Shown: positions 1,427-11,740 of the stretch, piece after piece
Numbering within the stretch: position 1 is the stretch's first letter
Layout of the letters: each line of letters opens with the position of its first letter
From: an uncultured Holophaga sp.
GTDB lineage: Bacteria > Acidobacteriota > Holophagae > Holophagales > Holophagaceae
DNA: 64,000 nucleotides
Direction of reading: 5' to 3'
Assembly (NCBI GenBank): GCA_963664825.1
Contig: OY761614.1
Location: forward strand, 1,664,001 to 1,728,000
The notes under the pieces: generated by a model
Databases searched by the model: none
What the model was told of the DNA's origin: nothing
The model's input: the letters and a program-made list of their open reading frames with translations, nothing else
Position numbers and translations under genes: made by a program

Positions 1427-1888
1427 ATGCGCCAATTTCGACAGAAAGGCTTCTCGCTGCTCGAACTGCTCGTCGCCATGACGATTTTGGCGGTGATCGG
1501 GACCATTGGCTTCGTCCAGTTCAAGAAGAACACTGCCCAGGCCAGGCACATCAAGGCTCAGAGCTACATTGATGTCGTGGGTGGAGGCCTGGATAACTAC
1601 TACCTGAAGCACGGTGTTTTTCCGGATTTGGGCAGTTTCGAGGCCATGGTTGAAGCCAATTCCCCGCTGGTTAAGCAAGACTTGATTCCTCCGAACACAC
1701 CCTCCAAGGATCCCTGGGGCCAGCCCTTCGAGGGGGTCTCGGCAAAGGGCAATTACACGCTGAAATGCCTTGGTGACCCCACCCATCAGGAGGAATACGG
1801 GCCAATAACGAGGACGCCGGGTGCGTACTCTGGTTCGACTTCGCCCGAAGCCCCCGCCCCAGCCCCTGGTGGAGAGGCACCTAAATGA
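1427..1888 (+). CDS. Type IV prepilin-like / GspG-like pseudopilin
   Basis: Class III signal KG|FSLLELLVAM followed by a hydrophobic helix; GspG-type KDPWGQPF motif. Confidence 0.85.
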   Translation: MRQFRQKGFSLLELLVAMTILAVIGTIGFVQFKKNTAQARHIKAQSYIDVVGGGLDNYYLKHGVFPDLGSFEAMVEANSPLVKQDLIPPNTPSKDPWGQPFEGVSAKGNYTLKCLGDPTHQEEYGPITRTPGAYSGSTSPEAPAPAPGGEAPK

Positions 1889-3791: not shown

Positions 3792-4496
3792 ATGAAGTTC
3801 AAGCGCATCCTCCTGAAGCTATCCGGCGAGGCCCTCATGGGCGCACAGGCAGGCGGCATCGATCCCGCGGTGGTCACGATGGTCGCCAACCAGGTGAAGG
3901 CCATCCAGGAGTTGGGCGTTGAAATCGGTCTGGTGATCGGCGGGGGCAATATCTTCCGCGGCGTGGCCGGGGCCACCAAGGGCATGGACCGGGTCACGGG
4001 GGACCACATGGGCATGCTGGCCACCATGATCAACGCCCTGGCCCTCCAGGACTCCCTGGAACAGAAGGGTGTCCAGACCCGGGTCATGAGCGGCATCGAG
4101 ATGCCCAAGATCTCCGAAAGCTACATCCGGCGCCGGGCCGTCCGCCATCTGGAAAAGGGCCGCGTCGTCATCTTCGGCGCGGGTACGGGCAATCCATACT
4201 TCTCCACCGACACAGCCGCCGCTCTGCGGGCCAACGAGATCGCGGCCCAGGTGGTGATGAAGGCCACCAACGTCGATGGCGTCTACAGTGCCGACCCCAA
4301 GAAGGACCCCACGGCCACCAAGTACGACCGGGTGGGCTACCAGGAGGTTCTGGAGAGGGGCCTGAAGGTCATGGATGCCGCGGCCATCGCCCTCTGCATG
4401 GAAAACAAGCTGCCCATCCTGGTCTTCAGCATGGCGGAGCCGGGTAACCTGCTGGCCGCCGTGGAGGGCAAGGTCATCGGGACGCTCGTGGGCTGA
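3792..4496 (+). CDS. pyrH: UMP kinase
   Basis: [39 protein letters not shown] at 3792 has a GGAG RBS. Confidence 0.97.
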
Positions 4497-4700
4497 GCCC
4501 TTCCGCCCCCAGTGCACGTCCACGGTCTTCACGCCGTGCGTCTCGCAGCGGCAGCGAGGCACCTGGGCCGTGAGATAGGCCGCGTGCTGAAAGAAGTCAG
4601 GGTGCCGCCAGGTCTTCTCCTCTATGTCGTGGGCCTTGCTCGGCTCCCCGCACTCGGGACACGGGAAGGAAGCCCCCTGTTGGAAGTCCAGCCGCGTGGA
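4495..4700 (-). pseudogene. ISL3-family transposase N-terminal (zinc-ribbon) remnant
   Basis: Minus frame RLDFQQGASFPCPECG...HDIEEKTWRHPDFFQHAAYLTAQVPRCRCETHGVKTVDVHW matches the ISL3 zinc-finger region. It is truncated at the pyrH stop. Ends are approximate. Confidence 0.8.
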
Positions 4701-4923
4701 TGCACTGGAGCTATCCGGCCCCGGTGACGCCGGTTGGCAGACCCACACCCGAAATTGGGCGCTTTGGCTTGAGCCGCATGGTACTCACGTGCGCCCAAAT
4801 TCGGATTTCAGTGTACGACGCTCTGATTGCGCTCTGCTGTCGGAATGACATGCTCGGGGTGTTTATGGGGTTGACCAACAAAGGAGGCATAACCTAAAAT
4901 TAATCCCCAACCAAGGAGGCCTC

Positions 4924-5103
4924 ATGGCCAAGCTTATTCTCAATCACAACTTCAAGCGTGTTGACCCCACGACGCTTAATAAAATGGTCACTGGTGGTAG
5001 CTTTTGCGATGTCCTGGCGGAGTCGCGGATGACTGCTGCAAGACAAGGTGACAACGTGCGCCATACTTTTTTGTGTCACATGTATGTCACTCTCTGCCAA
5101 TAA
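4924..5103 (+). CDS. Putative double-glycine-leader peptide precursor (bacteriocin/RiPP), 59 aa
   Basis: Hand translation: MAKLILNHNFKRVDPTTLNKMVTGG|SFCDVLAESRMTAARQGDNVRHTFLCHMYVTLCQ. AAGGAGG RBS at 4913-4919, tandem TAATAG stop, downstream terminator, and a C39 transporter in the same island. Confidence 0.8.
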   Translation: MAKLILNHNFKRVDPTTLNKMVTGGSFCDVLAESRMTAARQGDNVRHTFLCHMYVTLCQ

Positions 5104-5130
5104 TAGGTAAATATTGATTGTGTTTTGTGT

Positions 5131-5163
5131 GCCGCCTGAGATATTCTCGGGCGGTTTGTTTGT
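5131..5163 (+). terminator. Intrinsic terminator after the precursor gene
   Basis: GCCGCCTGAGA-TAT-TCTCGGGCGGT hairpin (with G-U pairs) followed by TTGTTTGT. Confidence 0.65.
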
Positions 5164-5169
5164 GTCCGG

Positions 5170-5365
5170 TGTCGACAAATGGTGCCTATCTTTTTGCACA
5201 ATATCACCATGTGCAAGAGGACCTTCGAAGAGATGGTCGAATCCGGGAGGCGAGCCTTGAGGTCTGGATCACTCGTGTTCCGCGGCTCGGGCACTTACTG
5301 CCCCTGAGGTGGCGATTCTGAAATTCTGGCACCGAACAGGCCCATGCGGTTCGACCTCGGCACGG
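5170..5365 (+). pseudogene. Degenerate IS1595-like transposase 5' remnant
   Basis: 5209-5253 matches the reverse complement of 8094-8138 at 33/45 nt by hand (MCKRTFEEMVESGR vs MRKEAFEGMLESVG). Ends are uncertain. Confidence 0.5.
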
Positions 5366-5707
5366 AATATTACAGAAATTTTCAAAATTAATAACTCAAA
5401 AAAACATGTATCTCGAGCTTTAGGCGTAGAGCTAATTGGGTCGATTTAAATTAATTGATCCGGTGGCTATGGAAATATGACTATTCCCATGTCAGTCTTG
5501 GGTTCTTTGATTGTCAACTTTCCGCCAAATTAATTGATTTCCTTGCTGCTGGTTGGTATATTACTGTTTATTGCTACCCAATAGGATGATTCGTTAGTGA
5601 TTATCGTTGATGTTACCAATGACAAGGTTTTATCTGTAATAAGTATAGATTTGGATAAGGTTGAATTCTCGAATTGACGAAAGGTATTTTCTCGGGGTAA
5701 ATAGATA

Positions 5708-7336
5708 ATGAACAAATATGATGTCCAGATTGTTGATGTGGTTGATCACCTCTTAGGGCATCTTGGACTATACAAGAAAAAAAAAGATGTGTTTTACGAT
5801 TTAATGTGTCATCCTCGATTCCCTTCGATTTTATCCATTGTGGATACCTTGAAATTATGGGGCATTTCAAGTGACGCCTACTATTTTCAGGTCGATAAAG
5901 ATCTTGATGGAGAATTACCAGGGATTGCGAGATTGAAAACCGATGATTTTGTAGCAATTCACAGCATAAAAAATAATTGTGTAACTTACTGGCACCCGAA
6001 GCATGGGACATGCATACATGGAGCTGACAAGTTTGAATTTCTCAGAGAAGTAATATTGGTTGACAAGTGTGATGTGAGTAGGATAAAACCAATTGGTTCA
6101 CTCGGTAATGTTTTAGATTACAAGTTTATTAGCGTTTATGCTGTATTAGCGCTGTTGGCTCCTTTTGTATTGGTGTCGGGATATTTTACAAAATACTGGC
6201 TTGCATTTTTATTAGTCTTATTGACTGAGATCGTGTTAAGTCTGATTTTGTATCTTTCACAATTTTCAGATAGAGGTTCGCCAGGATATTTGTGCCCAAC
6301 TAATCGGTTCTTTGATTGTTCCTCGGTTATAAATTCTCCAGCAGGGGAACTATTTGGTAAGCCCATGAGCGAGTGGGGAATCATAATATTTGGTGGTTGT
6401 CTTTTGACGGTATTTATAGCATCTATACTTAAGGTTCTGCCAGATATAATCCCTTGGCTAATGTTGGAGCACCTTCTGATATTGTTATATTGTATGTATT
6501 TAATTTTGTACCAAAGCGTAGTTATTAAGAAGTGGTGTATTTTGTGTTGTATTGTGCATGGGCTAATTGCATCGAATTTATTCCTATTGGTAAGTATTTT
6601 ACAACATCAGCAACGATCTGATCGTTTTTTTATTGCAAAAGTATCAATAAGCATGGTTGCGGGAGTGTGCTATTCGTTTATCGTCTGGTCGATGTATAAA
6701 AAAATTATCAACATGTTGCATGACAATAGGCAAAATAAAATTGAACTATTGCGAGTCAGGCGCGATCCGACATATATCGAAAGTTTGATTTCCAGCGAGG
6801 TACCTCTCCGGATCGATCGATTTCATCGAGAATTGATCTGGGGTGATCCAATAGCACCGAGGACAATTACAATTGTAATAGGTCTTGGGTGCCGCTACTG
6901 CAGGAACTTAGTAGAAGCTCTGGATAAACTTGTTATGTCTGAATTTAAAAATTACAAAATTTTCGTAAGATTCATAGGACAAGAGGATGGTTCGCGTATT
7001 ACTTTGAACGATTCTGTGGTATTGCGTTTAATAGAAATATCTATGCATAACGGCGGGGCTCAGGCAATGCAGGCGCTGATGGATTATTATTCAATGCAAA
7101 CAAATGTTAAAAATAAATATTTATATACGTGGTTGGAAAAGTATAACCTAAATTATGCTGATATCTCTAGAGAGGCGCATGCGTTGTATAAGCAACACAA
7201 TAAATGGCGCAATGATATGGGAATAGTTGAAGTGCCTACGGTATTGATTGATGGGGTAGCTTTGCCTAAAAATATTCCACAAATAGATGCAATATATTAT
7301 ATTCTAAAAAAAGATAGAGAAATTATCGGGGGTTAA
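5708..7336 (+). CDS. Fusion of C39-like domain, VKOR membrane domain and DsbA/thioredoxin-like domain
   Basis: N-terminal HPRFPSILSIVDTL...LPGIARL resembles a degenerate C39 fold. VKOR loop LCPTNRFFDCSSVINS and WCILC. Thioredoxin-like WGDPIAP...GCRYC...VPTVLIDG. Strongly AT-rich compared with the flanks. Confidence 0.8.
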   Translation: MNKYDVQIVDVVDHLLGHLGLYKKKKDVFYDLMCHPRFPSILSIVDTLKLWGISSDAYYFQVDKDLDGELPGIARLKTDDFVAIHSIKNNCVTYWHPKHGTCIHGADKFEFLREVILVDKCDVSRIKPIGSLGNVLDYKFISVYAVLALLAPFVLVSGYFTKYWLAFLLVLLTEIVLSLILYLSQFSDRGSPGYLCPTNRFFDCSSVINSPAGELFGKPMSEWGIIIFGGCLLTVFIASILKVLPDIIPWLMLEHLLILLYCMYLILYQSVVIKKWCILCCIVHGLIASNLFLLVSILQHQQRSDRFFIAKVSISMVAGVCYSFIVWSMYKKIINMLHDNRQNKIELLRVRRDPTYIESLISSEVPLRIDRFHRELIWGDPIAPRTITIVIGLGCRYCRNLVEALDKLVMSEFKNYKIFVRFIGQEDGSRITLNDSVVLRLIEISMHNGGAQAMQALMDYYSMQTNVKNKYLYTWLEKYNLNYADISREAHALYKQHNKWRNDMGIVEVPTVLIDGVALPKNIPQIDAIYYILKKDREIIGG

Positions 7337-7716
7337 TCTATATTACTGTCGAATTGCATATGGTCGAATCAAGATTTAGTCCATTATGAAATAACGGAGA
7401 AATTCAATATCTGCGCGATTATTGGTTTTTGAATTGTGGTATAATGATAAATGTATAGGTCAAAATGGATGTTGGCGAGGAGCTAAGTCTCAGACACTGC
7501 TTGACGCCGATCGAGCGTGAAAGCAGCTGGTTTGCATCGGACAGTACCTTCGCGAGCCTGAGTGGTCGGCACTGTATAATCCAACAAACGCAATCCTGAT
7601 ACGTTTTTATGGGGATCTATCGCATTTAAGAAAGATTAGGGTGAGCTGGGTGGTGAATACGATGGGATAATCTCTAGGTCAAGGCATACGGGTCACTAGT
7701 GTCCCACGATTGCATT

Positions 7717-8208
7717 GGCTATGTTCGCGTTGTTCGTTGGTAGTGATCTGCCCCGAGTGAAACCCGGATGAGTTTGCTTGGCGTGAGGGTTTCGGAGTGG
7801 CCATCCAGGAGGCGGTGCCAGCCGAGGTAGTTGGGGAGATAGTAGGTGCCGACGCCATGGAACCGGGCGATCCAGGCCTTGAGGCGGCTGTAGTAGGCGT
7901 TGACGTTCTGGACGTGGAAGGCCTGGCGAATGCGTATGTGGGCACTCAGGTTCACAGATTCGTGCACGATGGCCATGGATTTGGCGAACGCTTCGTAAAC
8001 CGGGCACCCTACGGAACCGGCCTCGCCGGAACTCTTACACCACGAGATGGGACGCGGGCTCTCCACCAGCGCGTTTCGTTGCCCCGGCGTCAATCGCCCT
8101 ACGGATTCCAGCATCCCCTCGAAGGCTTCCTTGCGCATGGCAACCTCCCGCACAAGTCCAGTTCACTTATCGACTTGGGAAATACCCATGATTAGCGCAG
8201 ACATAGCC
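7717..8208 (-). mobile_element. Internally deleted IS1595-family element (492 bp, non-autonomous)
   Basis: Imperfect terminal IRs GGCTATGTTCGCG / GGCTATGTCTGCG. Perfect 8-bp direct repeat ATTGCATT at 7709-7716 and 8209-8216. Residual ORF joins the transposase N-terminus to the C-terminal HVQNVNAYYSRLK..RFHGV..YL..YLGW. Confidence 0.88.
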
Positions 8209-8275
8209 ATTGCATTTGTATCTATTTTATGTGTACCTGTTATCTGCGAAGGTCCTCTGTCCATCTGGAGCTCCA

Positions 8276-9496
8276 TTGGAATGCGATTCTCAGCCTCGAT
8301 CATCCCTCTTCCGTCAGGAGGCCCTGGAACATCTATTTAAAAATCATGATATCCGTGAACCCTTGTGGGTCTCGCCTCCCTGGACCTGGTTGCTCTTCTT
8401 CGCCCTCGGAAGCGTCTTGCTGGTGGCCCTTCTGGCGGCAATCGTCGGCAAGGTAGAAGTTCAGGACACGGGCAAGGGGATTCTGCACCCTGTGGCGGGT
8501 GTGCGCCTGATCCAGGCTCAGGTTGGGGGAGTGCTGGCCGAGACCTATGCTCACAGTGGCGATACCTTGAGAGAAGGCCAGCCCATCGCCCGCATTGATT
8601 CGGCCCAGGTGCAGGGCGCCATCCTGGAAACGGATCGTCAGTTGCAGCTCCTTCGCTCCCAGGGGCAAACCTTCACCGAGCGAGAAGACAAGTTGCTCCA
8701 GGAACAACTTCGCGCCGTCCAGACGAAGCTTGTCCATCAGAACACGCAAGTGAAAAGCTTTGAGAGTTCCGTGAAAATCCAGGAAAAGAGAGTGGAAGCT
8801 ACGCGCAGACTGCTTGTGGAAAAATTGGTGGCACCCATCAATCTAGACGAGGCTCAAGATCAACTCAATGCGGCCCTACGCACACTCGATAGCGCGAAGC
8901 AGCAAATGGTGCAGCTTCGCCAGGAGTTTTCGACTCTTGAGAGCCAGCGGCAACGCAACCAGTGGCAACGGCTCCAGGACCTGAATGGCTCCCAGTCCAA
9001 GCGGGATGCCCTGGATTCGTCCTTGCGTCAGACCAATGTCGTAGCGCCGGTGGCGGGTTTTCTGGAAGCCCTGGTGGCGCGTCCAGGGGATCTTCTTCAG
9101 CCGGGGCAGACCATCGCCAAGATTATCTCCGAGGATTCACCGCTGCAGGTGGTGGCCTTCCTGCCCGAAAAGGACCGGGCCTTCGTCAAGTCGGGCGATC
9201 AGGTATTGCTGGAAATGGAGGCCTATCTTTTCACGGAGTTTGGCACATTGAAAGGCCGCGTCACGCGCATTGGGTCTGATCTGGCCTCTCAGTATGAAAT
9301 CCAGGAAGCCCGTGGGGAAACGGGCAAGCTGGATACGCCAGCCTATCGCGTGGAGATCGAACTGCGGCCCGAGCGCTCCAAGCGTTTCTCGGGCGTGAAG
9401 ATCCGCCCCGGTATGCTGCTTTCGGCTCGCTTTACCCTGCGGCGGCAGCGCCTCATCACCATCGTGCTGGATCCCCTGCGACGCTGGCTGGAGTAG
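8276..9496 (+). CDS. HlyD-family membrane fusion protein of a peptide export system
   Basis: LFRQEAL N-terminal motif, a single TM, lipoyl halves flanking a long coiled coil, IRPGM near the C-terminus. Likely start is TTG 8276 with GGAG (ORF track starts at 8210). Confidence 0.9.
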   Translation: MECDSQPRSSLFRQEALEHLFKNHDIREPLWVSPPWTWLLFFALGSVLLVALLAAIVGKVEVQDTGKGILHPVAGVRLIQAQVGGVLAETYAHSGDTLREGQPIARIDSAQVQGAILETDRQLQLLRSQGQTFTEREDKLLQEQLRAVQTKLVHQNTQVKSFESSVKIQEKRVEATRRLLVEKLVAPINLDEAQDQLNAALRTLDSAKQQMVQLRQEFSTLESQRQRNQWQRLQDLNGSQSKRDALDSSLRQTNVVAPVAGFLEALVARPGDLLQPGQTIAKIISEDSPLQVVAFLPEKDRAFVKSGDQVLLEMEAYLFTEFGTLKGRVTRIGSDLASQYEIQEARGETGKLDTPAYRVEIELRPERSKRFSGVKIRPGMLLSARFTLRRQRLITIVLDPLRRWLE

Positions 9497-9499
9497 CCC

Positions 9500-10329
9500 G
9501 TGATGCACCGCGTTCCTTACGTCCCCCAGATGGAAATGGTGGAGTGCGGCGCCGCCGCGCTGGCTATGGTGATGGGCTATTGGGGCCATCATGCGCCCCT
9601 TCCAGAGGTGCGCGAGGCCTGCAAGGTCTCTCGGGATGGCGCCAACGCCGCCAATATCCTTCAAGCTGGGCGGAGTTTTGGCCTGGAGGCCGAGGCCGTG
9701 AAGGTGGAGGTGCAGCACATTCGGGATCTTCCTCTTCCCGCAATTCTCCACTGGGAGTTCAAGCATTTCGTGGTGTTGGAGCGCATCACCTCCAGGGGTG
9801 TCCATATCGTGGATCCTGGGATGGGCAGGCGCTTCGTCACTTGGGCGGAATTTCGAACATCATTTACGGGAGTGGCGCTGGTATTCGCTCCCGATGACGA
9901 CTTTGTCGAACGTAAGCGGCGCTTCCCAAGCTTGGGCCGCTACCTGGAAATCCTGCGGAGCGTTCGGCCCAGTCTCGTGCAGCTTCTGGGGGCTTCCCTC
10001 ATGCTCCAGGCTGTGGGTCTGATATTTCCCGTGGCCAGTCAGGTCCTGGTGGACCGGGTGCTTTTGCCCCACTACCAGCCTTGGTTATGGGGACTTGCAG
10101 TGGGTCTCGCGTCTGCCGTGATCGGATACCTGGCCAACGCCAGCTCGTGGCTATCACAGCGGTCCTGGCCTCAGACAAACATCTCCTGCTCCTGGACGAA
10201 GTCCTTTCCAATCTAGACTGGGTGAGCCGCCAGCGTATCCTCCAATGCCCCCGGTTCAAAGGCAGAACCATCATCTATGCAAGTCATGAGGAAGTCCTGG
10301 TGGGAAGAGAAGAGGGGAAAATGTTGTAA
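9500..10329 (+). pseudogene. Peptidase C39-containing ABC transporter with a large internal deletion and frame switch
   Basis: Frame 9500-10216 has QMEMVECG, HFVV, VDPG and two TM helices. From about 10125 a different frame reads GQRQL...LLLLDE..SNLD...IIYASH (signature remnant, Walker B, H-loop). Most of the TM domain and Walker A are missing. Confidence 0.85.
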
Positions 10330-10402
10330 TTATTTATTAATTGAATTGCATTAGGCGGTGGTTTCATGCATGGCATAGCCCCCGGCTAAACTGAGACAAT
10401 AA

Positions 10403-11740
10403 ATGCACCCCTTCCCGGAGATCCCCCAGGCCCGCATGATCCTCGACCCCGAGGGGCTGGAGGCCTACCGGCGGGACGAATCCCATCTCCAGGGGCCAAG
10501 GCCCCTGGCCGTGGTGAAGCCCCGCGGTCCCCAGGCCCTTCGGGAGCTGGTGCGCCTGGCCAAGACCGAAGGCTTCGCCTTGGTGCCCCGGGGCACGGGC
10601 ACGGGGAAGGCCGGGGGCTGCGTGCCCACGGAGCGATGCGTGGTGGTGGACTTGAGTGAATGGCCTGGGGAGATCCGCATCTCCCGCCCGGATCTCGCCC
10701 TCCAGGCTCCGGCCAGCGTGCTCCTGAGGGAGGTGAAGGCCGCTGCCTTGGCTCAGGGCCTCTTCTATGCCCCTGATCCGAATTCCTGGGATCAATGCTC
10801 CTTTGGCGGCACCCTGGCCACCAACGCGGGTGGGCCCTCCGCCGCCAAGTACGGCATGACCCGGCACTGGGTGTTGGCGGTGGAGGCCCTCATGGGCGAC
10901 GGCGAGATCCACACCTTCGGCATTCCCACCGTGAAGAACAACGCCGGGCCCGCCCTGGCCCAACTCCTGGTGGGCAGCGAGGGCATCTTCGGCATCCTGC
11001 TGGGCGCCACCGTGCGCTTGATCCCCGCGCCCCGGGAGCGGCTCACCCTGCTCTTGCCCGCCCGGGATTGGCACAGCCTCCTGGAATTGCCCTCCCTGCT
11101 GGTGGGCGCGGGACTCCTGCCCAGCGCCTTCGAGTTCTGGGACCCGGCGGTGCTGGAGCTGTTGCGCCACTTTGGCCCCGAAGAGGCCCGCCGGATGCCG
11201 GGAGAGGGTCTCGCCCTGCTGGAATTCGATGATCCGGGCTGCGGAACGGAAGCCTTCCTGGAACAACTGCTGGAGCTCCTCGGCCCGGTCTCCGAGGATC
11301 TGCAGAGCGCCACCGACGCCCGCCAGCGGGAAGCCCTCTGGGCCATCCGTCGCCAGACCAGCGTCGTGCTCAAGGATCACTTCCCCCGGAAGATGAGCGA
11401 GGATATCGTCGTGCCGAGAAGCCAGGTGCGCGCTTTCTTTGAGGGTGTAGACGCCCTCCATCTGCCCCTGGTGACCTACGGGCACCTGGGGGATGGCAAT
11501 CTGCACGTGAATTTCCTCCAGGCCGGGGAATGCGCGCCCCCGGAGATGGAGGCCCATCTGATGGCCCTATTCCGTCTATGTCTCCGGTTGGGGGGCACCC
11601 TCAGCGGCGAACATGGCATCGGCCTGGCCAAGCGGGAGGCCTTTCTGGCCCTCTCCGATCCGTACCAGATCCAGGCCCTGCGCGCCCTCAAGGGGGCCCT
11701 GGACCCCTTCGCCCTCTTTAATCCCGGAAAGGTCATTTGA
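10403..11740 (+). CDS. FAD-linked oxidase (GlcD/D-lactate dehydrogenase family)
   Basis: PRGTGTGKAGG, FYAPDPNS, TNAGG..KYG, GHLGDGNLH, SGEHGIG, NPGK. Confidence 0.9.
   Translation: MHPFPEIPQARMILDPEGLEAYRRDESHLQGPRPLAVVKPRGPQALRELVRLAKTEGFALVPRGTGTGKAGGCVPTERCVVVDLSEWPGEIRISRPDLALQAPASVLLREVKAAALAQGLFYAPDPNSWDQCSFGGTLATNAGGPSAAKYGMTRHWVLAVEALMGDGEIHTFGIPTVKNNAGPALAQLLVGSEGIFGILLGATVRLIPAPRERLTLLLPARDWHSLLELPSLLVGAGLLPSAFEFWDPAVLELLRHFGPEEARRMPGEGLALLEFDDPGCGTEAFLEQLLELLGPVSEDLQSATDARQREALWAIRRQTSVVLKDHFPRKMSEDIVVPRSQVRAFFEGVDALHLPLVTYGHLGDGNLHVNFLQAGECAPPEMEAHLMALFRLCLRLGGTLSGEHGIGLAKREAFLALSDPYQIQALRALKGALDPFALFNPGKVI

Follow-up and report, generated by a model that had tools for sequence, protein, structure and literature searches.

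Disulfide-bearing peptides with double-glycine (double-Gly) leaders that are encoded beside an oxidoreductase and a transporter are already known, as are VKOR-thioredoxin fusions and an inward-facing VKOR from archaea. Bacteroidetocin loci bring together a double-Gly disulfide peptide, a peptidase ABC transporter and a thiol oxidoreductase whose deletion attenuated toxin activity (PMC6671954, in its available portion). Class IIa microcins are likewise Gram-negative peptides with a double-Gly leader and a disulfide in the mature peptide, and they leave the cell via PCAT-HlyD-TolC (available portions of PMC12219008 and PMC5311971). The Synechococcus VKOR-thioredoxin fusion (4NV2, 4NV5, 4NV6) joins a VKOR core, with a loop Cys pair and a membrane CxxC, to a thioredoxin-fold domain. 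According to the available portion of a 2026 paper (PMC13486548), VKORs mostly face outward, with a few crenarchaeal exceptions that face inward; Aeropyrum pernix ApVKORi, whose catalytic Cys are cytoplasmic, is reported to support cytoplasmic disulfides with a signal-less DsbA in E. coli. Here we describe a 542-residue C39-like/VKOR/DsbA-like fusion protein encoded in a 5.9-kb island between pyrH and an FAD oxidase gene of an uncultured Holophaga sp. The window is the 64-kb stretch G000:C1:1664001-1728000 of the host genome (one contig of 3.47 Mb, 63.7% G+C content (GC), 96.6% complete); G numbers denote genomes compared, L numbers loci fetched, and G000:C1 gives coordinates on the host contig. 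On balance we think it probable that this mosaic island has at its core an intact foreign gene for an enzyme that likely docks double-Gly leaders and is predicted to make disulfides on the cytoplasmic face of the membrane, working, if at all, only with an intact exporter elsewhere.

The fusion starts with a protease-dead C39-like domain (about residues 1-125), continues with six membrane helices that hold the VKOR core, and ends in a DsbA-like domain. Its structure model (predicted local distance difference test, pLDDT, 84; predicted template modelling score, pTM, 0.78) has membrane-length helices at residues 139-156, 162-183, 220-240, 244-273, 278-300 and from 309. All three domains had been proposed in an initial annotation made from the sequence without database searches, and profile scans directly recovered two of them: the VKOR domain (PF07884, E 4.6e-15, 56.4 bits vs a cut-off of 27.5) and the DsbA-like domain (Thioredoxin_4, PF13462, 23.4 bits vs 23.2), the latter with C395, C398, the cis-Pro P510 and fold matches to BdbD, ScsC and DsbA. 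The Peptidase_C39 profile (PF03412) gave no match on the fusion itself and did match homologues; the domain was recognised through these, through a profile match to the peptidase domains of PCAT1, LahT and ComA, and through a fold match to the LahT domain 6MPZ (Foldseek E 7e-4, TM-score 0.72, root-mean-square deviation 2.9). The profile alignment spans PCAT1 residues 17-183, which comprise the cytoplasmic peptidase domain and the first membrane helix. The C39 catalytic Cys and His are gone from this domain: the Q-x-CG motif occurs in 0 of 254 aligned proteins, and the His column holds Asp here. The VKOR Cys, C196 and C204 in the loop and C277 and C280 in the membrane CxxC, are invariant in 31 alignment rows, and all six redox Cys are kept in 253 of the 254 proteins (480-640 residues; the query, search hits and locus proteins, some present twice).

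Homologues of the fusion formed 2483 clusters at E 0.001 and 1319 at 1e-10, not all of them full length, with a best identity of 29-30% among the top matches. A VKOR over cut-off was found in none of 132 other genomes of the host's taxonomic family; a weak match in G006, below cut-off and within a lipoprotein-permease region, was rejected. Among 400 genomes of the phylum, only G216 and G397 matched the N-domain, VKOR and thioredoxin parts, each in a 641-residue open frame with all three domains (L256, G216:C277:1-4048, and L257, G397:C322). In L256 the fusion has two 8-Cys double-Gly peptides, almost identical to each other, at its flanks and the end of an ABC transporter gene ahead of it; as judged from this gene content, G216:C277 carries an intact fusion-peptide-transporter cassette in the host's own phylum. 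FastTree tentatively placed the fusion studied here on a long branch (2.1-2.2), grouped with Ca. Aminicenantes, Ca. Deferrimicrobium and unnamed rows and apart from the named Bacteroidota rows. The earlier statement that such fusions come mainly from Bacteroidota fits the bulk of the loci (Bacteroidota taxa in 76 of 80 genome-locus titles) and not, tentatively, the nearest relatives of this copy, which appear to be non-Bacteroidota. The host genome contained no DsbB, other VKOR or other DsbA-like match, and menaquinone pathway genes are present. No vitamin K carboxylase, the VKOR partner in animals, was among 25 annotated neighbour families.

Association of the homologues with Cys-containing double-Gly peptides, HlyD and peptidase transporters had been set beforehand as a test of the proposal, and we found it to be strong. 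Loci of the family were fetched from metagenomes (79, from the best 80 of 238 confirmed) and genomes (80, the best 80 of 291), with patterns taken from a 12-row alignment; merging at 70% identity left 123 loci, of which 57 had at least 5 kb on both sides. Of these well-flanked loci, 45 contained a peptidase transporter and 39 an HlyD gene. At least 41 had a same-strand double-Gly peptide within 3.5 kb and at least 38 one with four or more Cys, these peptide counts being lower bounds because the peptides were sought by the canonical leader pattern. A TlpA-like thioredoxin (lipoprotein) was present in 32 loci, a radical SAM enzyme in two and LanB in two. The number of Cys was even in 65 of 78 distinct cores with at least one Cys (zero-Cys cores were excluded), mostly 4, 6 or 8, and even counts of other residues stood at 39/79 for Gly, 35/77 for Ser, 37/77 for Thr, 37/74 for Asp and 30/74 for Ala. 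This even-Cys bias is the expectation from a dedicated disulfide catalyst. It was seen in 62 of 69 cores from loci without a radical SAM or Lan enzyme vs three of nine with one (Fisher p 4e-4, with kin not fully independent). Collectively, the fusion family is widespread, and its gene neighbourhoods show a strong link to peptide export.

Some loci of the family hold additional enzymes or peptides. L112:9126-19087 encodes, in one run, the fusion, a 7-Cys class I lanthipeptide precursor, LanC, LanB and a peptidase transporter, a candidate for a hybrid thioether and disulfide pathway. In L040, L055, L057 and L124 the fusion adjoins genes for a TIGR04148-type radical SAM and a TIGR04150-type pseudo-radical SAM protein, and the peptides of L055, L057 and L062 have 5 or 7 Cys. 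Close to the fusion, or immediately 5' of it, L142, L146, L181 and L184 carry short double-Gly open reading frames (ORFs) with 0-1 Cys, their cores spanning 12-23 residues. Three of them have leaders that start alike, and the group possibly represents signalling or regulatory peptides.

The most unusual point of the locus, which the initial annotation had missed, is the predicted orientation of the fusion. Profile and model place two helices between the N-domain and the VKOR Cys loop and two after the membrane CxxC; these helix counts put the N-domain, both VKOR Cys pairs and the DsbA-like domain on one side of the membrane. We then scored charge as the lysine plus arginine count in the Cys loop and before the CxxC minus that in the three opposite loops. 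The bias was positive toward the active-site side in 253 of 254 fusion-family proteins (mean +5.1), and it was negative in 25 of 26 ordinary VKORs of the host's phylum (mean -4.7; 30 control loci fetched, four of which failed the profile filter). A signal-like N-terminus was found in one of the 254 proteins. Helix count and charge together strongly predict that the catalytic Cys of the fusion family face the cytoplasm, opposite to those of ordinary bacterial VKORs.

Within the host's phylum, five genomes from a single family encode stand-alone VKOR-like proteins with the same inverted charge bias (L253:7240-7914, L254:6900-7559, L255:6734-7519, L258:6445-7092 and L009). They are 216-262-residue frames close in sequence to the VKOR part of the fusion, and none of the four regions scanned contained a C39-like domain, a thioredoxin domain or a double-Gly peptide.

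These features suggest a mechanism in which the dead C39-like domain would bind the double-Gly leader without cutting it, as its fold and linkage imply, and the CxxC of the DsbA-like domain would oxidise the core Cys in the cytoplasm. Electrons would pass from this CxxC to the loop Cys pair, the membrane CxxC and finally menaquinone, and the peptidase ABC transporter, HlyD and TolC would then cut the leader and export the stapled peptide in one step. Such export past the periplasm would explain why the catalyst must face inward. For the family as a whole, we consider inward, leader-guided disulfide formation followed by export to be likely from sequence and model. Activity of the present copy on the peptide encoded beside it we hold to be somewhat unlikely, for the reasons given below.

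Between pyrH, which ends at 4496, and the FAD oxidase gene, which starts at 10403, lie an ISL3 remnant, a 59-residue ORF, the 542-residue ORF, an IS1595 remnant, an HlyD gene and a C39-bearing ORF (Table 1). ORF calls and Pfam confirmed the four plus-strand ORFs, and the two remnants bear out the description of the block as scarred by insertion sequences. The block is an insertion: the gap between pyrH and the FAD oxidase gene measures 25-51 bases in G004, G007 and G008, which leaves the site empty in three of eight congeners, and G002 and G003 carry different inserts of about 2.7 kb. Occupancy was judged in five of the eight, the flank being unmatched or at a contig end in the remaining three. 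In G002 the site is filled by a different 885-residue gene on the opposite strand (L207:2128-4782). Other inserts at this position indicate that the site receives inserts repeatedly. Positions 4495-4690 are 86-88% identical to ISL3 copies of G007 and G006. The island was described as AT-rich, and this is true only of about 5400-7500; the fusion gene (36.8% GC) is the lowest among 4342 genome windows of equal size, and HlyD and the transporter have 58-59% GC. Three compositions occur within 5.9 kb. Sequencing run X2 covers 4200-8421 and 10078-10700 with zero differences and yielded no undeleted exporter joined to the fusion; this run possibly represents the source sample and is therefore not independent support for the island.

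Table 1. Features of the island between pyrH and the FAD oxidase gene (window coordinates)
Feature	Position	Strand	Evidence
ISL3 transposase 5' remnant, left island edge	4495..4748	-	Pfam Zn_ribbon_ISL3, NCBIfam transpos_ISL3
Sigma-70-like promoter candidate upstream of peptide gene	4871..4900	+	Best plus-strand site in region, 10/12; weak
59-residue precursor-like peptide	4924..5103	+	ORF, AAGGAGG ribosome site, double stop
Terminator-like hairpin, 11 pairs, directly 3' of peptide gene	5131..5155	+	Longest of 6 stems; count at chance level
542-residue fusion, C39-like/VKOR/DsbA-like	5708..7336	+	Pfam, alignments, PDB profile and fold matches, model, charge bias
IS1595 transposase remnant, between fusion and HlyD	7719..8153	-	NCBIfam transpos_IS1595 E 5.7e-16, below cut-off, partial
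HlyD-family adaptor, intact, 406 residues from TTG	8276..9496	+	Pfam HlyD_3
Truncated peptidase ABC transporter: intact C39 domain and membrane-domain start	9500..10216	+	Pfam Peptidase_C39 E 5e-37
Second ABC transporter gene scraps: 27 nt from the middle, then out-of-frame 3' end	10106..10329	+	DNA matches

Closer inspection of the right half of the island traced its exporter genes to the host itself. Window positions 8267-10120 are 95% identical to G000:C1:2659241-2657388, which encodes the HlyD and peptidase transporter of the host's class I lanthipeptide cluster, and orthologues of this exporter occur at 79-81% in G007 and G008. HlyD was correctly called as present and is intact, its start most likely being the TTG at 8276 and not 8210 as first proposed. 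It is 95.6% identical to G000:C1:2659250-2658015, with a nonsynonymous-to-synonymous substitution ratio (dN/dS) of 0.10 and a dS of 0.23; divergence under purifying selection indicates that the exporter cluster once worked. The gene taken for a complete peptidase ABC transporter retains its C39-bearing start and is otherwise not whole. It is 96% identical over 211 residues to a 711-residue gene at G000:C1:2658008, up to a deletion cut at about 10105; two deletions, of about 2.4 kb and 0.9 kb, fuse some 202 transporter codons to scraps of the second ABC gene of that cluster, which removes both permease and ATPase. These scraps match G000:C1:2654941-2654915 at 100% and 2654047-2653875 at 80%, and G007 and G008 at 83%. 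The excess in GC of transporter over fusion (+0.22) was reached by 0 of 57 fusion-family loci. By these matches, the island HlyD and transporter are a broken copy of the host lanthipeptide exporter and do not come from the fusion's donor. With neither permease nor ATPase left, the island could function only through the intact exporter, which lies 1 Mb away.

As noted beforehand, no LanB, LanM, YcaO or SPASM gene is in the island and no TolC-family match falls inside the window; LanB, LanC and the intact exporter are found elsewhere in the genome, together with about 10 TolC-family genes (18 OEP matches over cut-off). The ORF listing and Pfam scan of the island revealed no immunity-like ORF. 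The host lanthipeptide cluster (G000:C1:2653483-2667730; L001, L002) comprises LanC, LanB (1084 residues), HlyD, the peptidase transporter and the second ABC gene, is interrupted by insertion sequences, and holds three precursor-like peptides with 3, 4 and 5 Cys. The host's one LanB lies outside the island at C1:2660444-2662405. At G000:C1:2290506 and 1299809, TolC-family domains sit within frames of 1466 and 1476 residues, probable pump-channel fusions. Upstream of the island, window positions 1427-1888 hold what we take to be a type II secretion pseudopilin-like ORF, between a presumed sigma-54 response regulator and a run that we read as yceD-rpmF-plsX-pyrH, in which pyrH was scanned.

The 59-residue peptide has the Gly-Gly and 34-residue core first attributed to it: the putative leader comprises 25 residues with Gly-Gly at 24-25, and the core carries Cys at positions 3, 26 and 33 and five Ser/Thr. 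With three core Cys, no more than one intramolecular disulfide can form, which leaves one thiol free. The leader is hydrophobic at -4; its other hydrophobic residues, expected at -7 and -12, stand one position off register at -8 and -13. We found no Pfam or NCBIfam family match for the peptide, including NF038153 at E 1, and no homologue in 90% protein clusters or in 132 host-family genomes; of ten weak matches (E 0.03-0.49), the best proved to be a chance match opposite a copper ATPase. Six-frame reading of 5104-5707 revealed no second cryptic Gly-Gly precursor. Promoter-like sites overall were at chance (8 found vs 8.1 expected). The peptide gene precedes the fusion gene, an arrangement shared with the fusion's nearest relatives (L036, L037, L038, L040 and L125), and across the 3.47 Mb a loose leader pattern, fitted post hoc, retrieved this ORF, two lanthipeptide precursors and nothing else. 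A position-specific scoring matrix value of -6 for the leader was discarded as circular, the family leaders having been chosen by the canonical pattern. A single-sequence model gave a helix-turn-helix of low confidence (pLDDT 52) in which Cys 3/33 and Arg10/Cys26 are symmetric about the turn, and it is possible that the peptide is a hairpin that lost one of four Cys. Judged from this model, the Cys spacing and relatives such as L037 and L043, a helical hairpin with a 3-33 bond and with Cys26 opposite Arg10 would be a candidate arrangement. The link of the peptide to the fusion is putative.

Several observations weigh against the proposal that an inward-facing fusion makes disulfides in this peptide. 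The predicted orientation draws on helix count and charge; in this copy the VKOR core has a bias of only +1, or +11 when the flanks of its soluble domains are counted in, and the positive-inside rule is reported not to hold for mammalian and viral VKORs (available portion of PMC13486548). Because some VKORs violate this rule, the inward orientation is strongly predicted rather than established. Among the CxxC motifs of the family, CGPC is the most frequent (89 of 254), and this motif alone does not say oxidase. This copy is among the most degenerate, with 40 of 64 conserved columns kept (median 55; 4 of 254 as low). The Cys count of the peptide is odd, its leader scores 4.0 bits on a fusion-family leader model vs 4.4 for the 95th percentile of shuffles, and its GC of 49% exceeds that of the fusion by +0.12, an excess reached by 2 of 64 fusion-family loci.

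Collectively, these data identify the island as a strain-specific mosaic of four real genes that form no single native operon, and this copy is likely a patched-together relic, in line with the impression of decay conveyed by the initial annotation. The disulfide-maturing system proposed there is borne out for the family by linkage and even-Cys bias; here, with the transporter destroyed and the tie between peptide and enzyme putative, the island is not a complete system of that kind. The contrary possibility raised at the same time, that the four genes are independent insertions, holds in part: HlyD and the transporter derive from the host lanthipeptide exporter, and the peptide has an atypical leader and a higher GC.

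A more ambitious reading is that a widespread family makes disulfide-rich peptides in the cytoplasm via a single leader-guided, quinone-driven enzyme, which has here replaced the thioether-forming enzyme on a lanthipeptide export chassis to give a still-active hybrid that borrows the host's intact exporter. We consider this unlikely.

Less probable again is that the peptide is a substrate of LanB and LanC in trans, to which the fusion may contribute one disulfide, and that the island is a sister lanthipeptide cluster with the fusion in the LanB slot. The exporter comes from a lanthipeptide cluster, and the order of peptide, enzyme, HlyD and transporter is the same as there; the peptide's GC lies within the 42-54% of five host-cluster peptides, and its core combines five Ser/Thr with an odd Cys number, as do most fusion loci with thioether enzymes (6 of 9 odd). 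LanB is present in 61 of 120 genomes of the host's taxonomic family, and L112 joins the fusion to a 7-Cys class I precursor, LanC and LanB. The peptide itself points the other way. Its leader scores 0.5 bits on a model of five host leaders (members 42-53, shuffles mean 0.0) and is pairwise no closer to host-cluster than to fusion-family leaders (p 0.44); NF038153, which the peptide does not match, is matched by four of the five host-cluster peptides (one over cut-off); no DNA similarity links it to the host precursor regions, and LanB and LanC are not in the island. A host LanA origin of the leader was suggestive by eye and unsupported by scoring.

We find it similarly improbable that the fusion faces inward and serves as a reductase, isomerase or means of self-protection that keeps Cys-rich precursors export-competent, with disulfides forming later outside. 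The frequency of CGPC among the thioredoxin-domain motifs is compatible with this, and the TlpA-like lipoprotein of 32 of the 57 loci could oxidise outside; no TlpA-like gene was found in the other 25. The cytoplasm already reduces thiols, so that a quinone-linked relay is needed for oxidation and not for reduction, and the domain is a DsbA/BdbD/ScsC fold with a cis-Pro. In the case of microcin PDI, the producer could do without its Dsb system, and the target cell was proposed as the place of oxidation (available portion of PMC5311971), which suits disulfide formation after export.

An ordinary periplasm-facing VKOR-DsbA pair with peptide oxidation in the periplasm is very unlikely. The outward orientation of the bacterial VKORs described in the available portion of PMC13486548, the exceptions to the positive-inside rule and the weak core charge bias of this copy would accommodate it; it needs a folded 125-residue N-domain to cross the membrane without a signal peptide, or an odd helix count ahead of the loop, where two helices are seen, and the charge pattern is the mirror image of that of ordinary VKORs. 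We give very little credence to a last reading, in which an insertion hotspot gathered four unrelated genes as debris and the peptide ORF is no real precursor. The three compositions, the two insertion-sequence remnants, the 2.7-kb inserts of G002 and G003 and the lack of a homologue or family match for the peptide speak for it; against it stand the peptide gene's placement upstream of the fusion, its strong ribosome site and its hairpin terminator, a Gly-Gly where leaders typically have one, and the near-unique post hoc leader pattern.

Peptides exported by PCAT-HlyD-TolC skip the periplasm, the usual Gram-negative site of disulfide formation. If our preferred reading of a leader-guided, inward VKOR-DsbA fusion is true, it answers where disulfides form for a large family, extends inward-facing VKORs from a few archaea to bacteria, and opens a pool of hypervariable 4-, 6- and 8-Cys peptides; a single gene would then also serve as a tool for producing disulfide-rich peptides in the cytoplasm. 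The present copy is a poor model for the family, but it documents transfer of the module between phyla to a place next to the exporter of another peptide class.

The three-domain fusion is undescribed in the open literature searched, outside which subscription papers and supplements lie, and it is unmentioned in the available portions of PMC12648112, PMC12453122 and PMC5306230. The class IIa microcins differ in that no dedicated oxidase is named for them and the site of disulfide formation is unsettled in the available portions of PMC12219008 and PMC5311971. Bacteroidetocin loci, compared by description only, encode their oxidoreductase separately, alongside an unknown membrane protein of five helices, and the available portion of PMC6671954 describes neither a three-domain fusion nor an inward orientation. 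The lanthipeptide cluster of the host family (G000:C1:2653483-2667730; G007, G008) is the source of the island HlyD, peptidase transporter and second ABC scraps, and combines LanB, LanC, NF038153-type precursors and an intact exporter with no VKOR fusion. The peptidase domains of PCAT1 and LahT (6V9Z, 7N87, 6MPZ) share the fold of the fusion's N-domain, with an alignment that runs into the first membrane helix; unlike them, this domain lacks the catalytic Cys and His and is attached to a redox module, not to an ABC transporter. ApVKORi is an archaeal stand-alone protein, whereas the fusion is bacterial, carries its own oxidase as well as a leader-type domain, and is associated with peptide export. 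Compared with the Synechococcus fusion, to which it shows a profile match (E 1e-4), the protein described here adds an N-terminal C39-like domain and a membrane helix, carries a DsbA-like in place of a plain thioredoxin domain, is predicted to take the opposite orientation, and stands in the context of a peptide locus.

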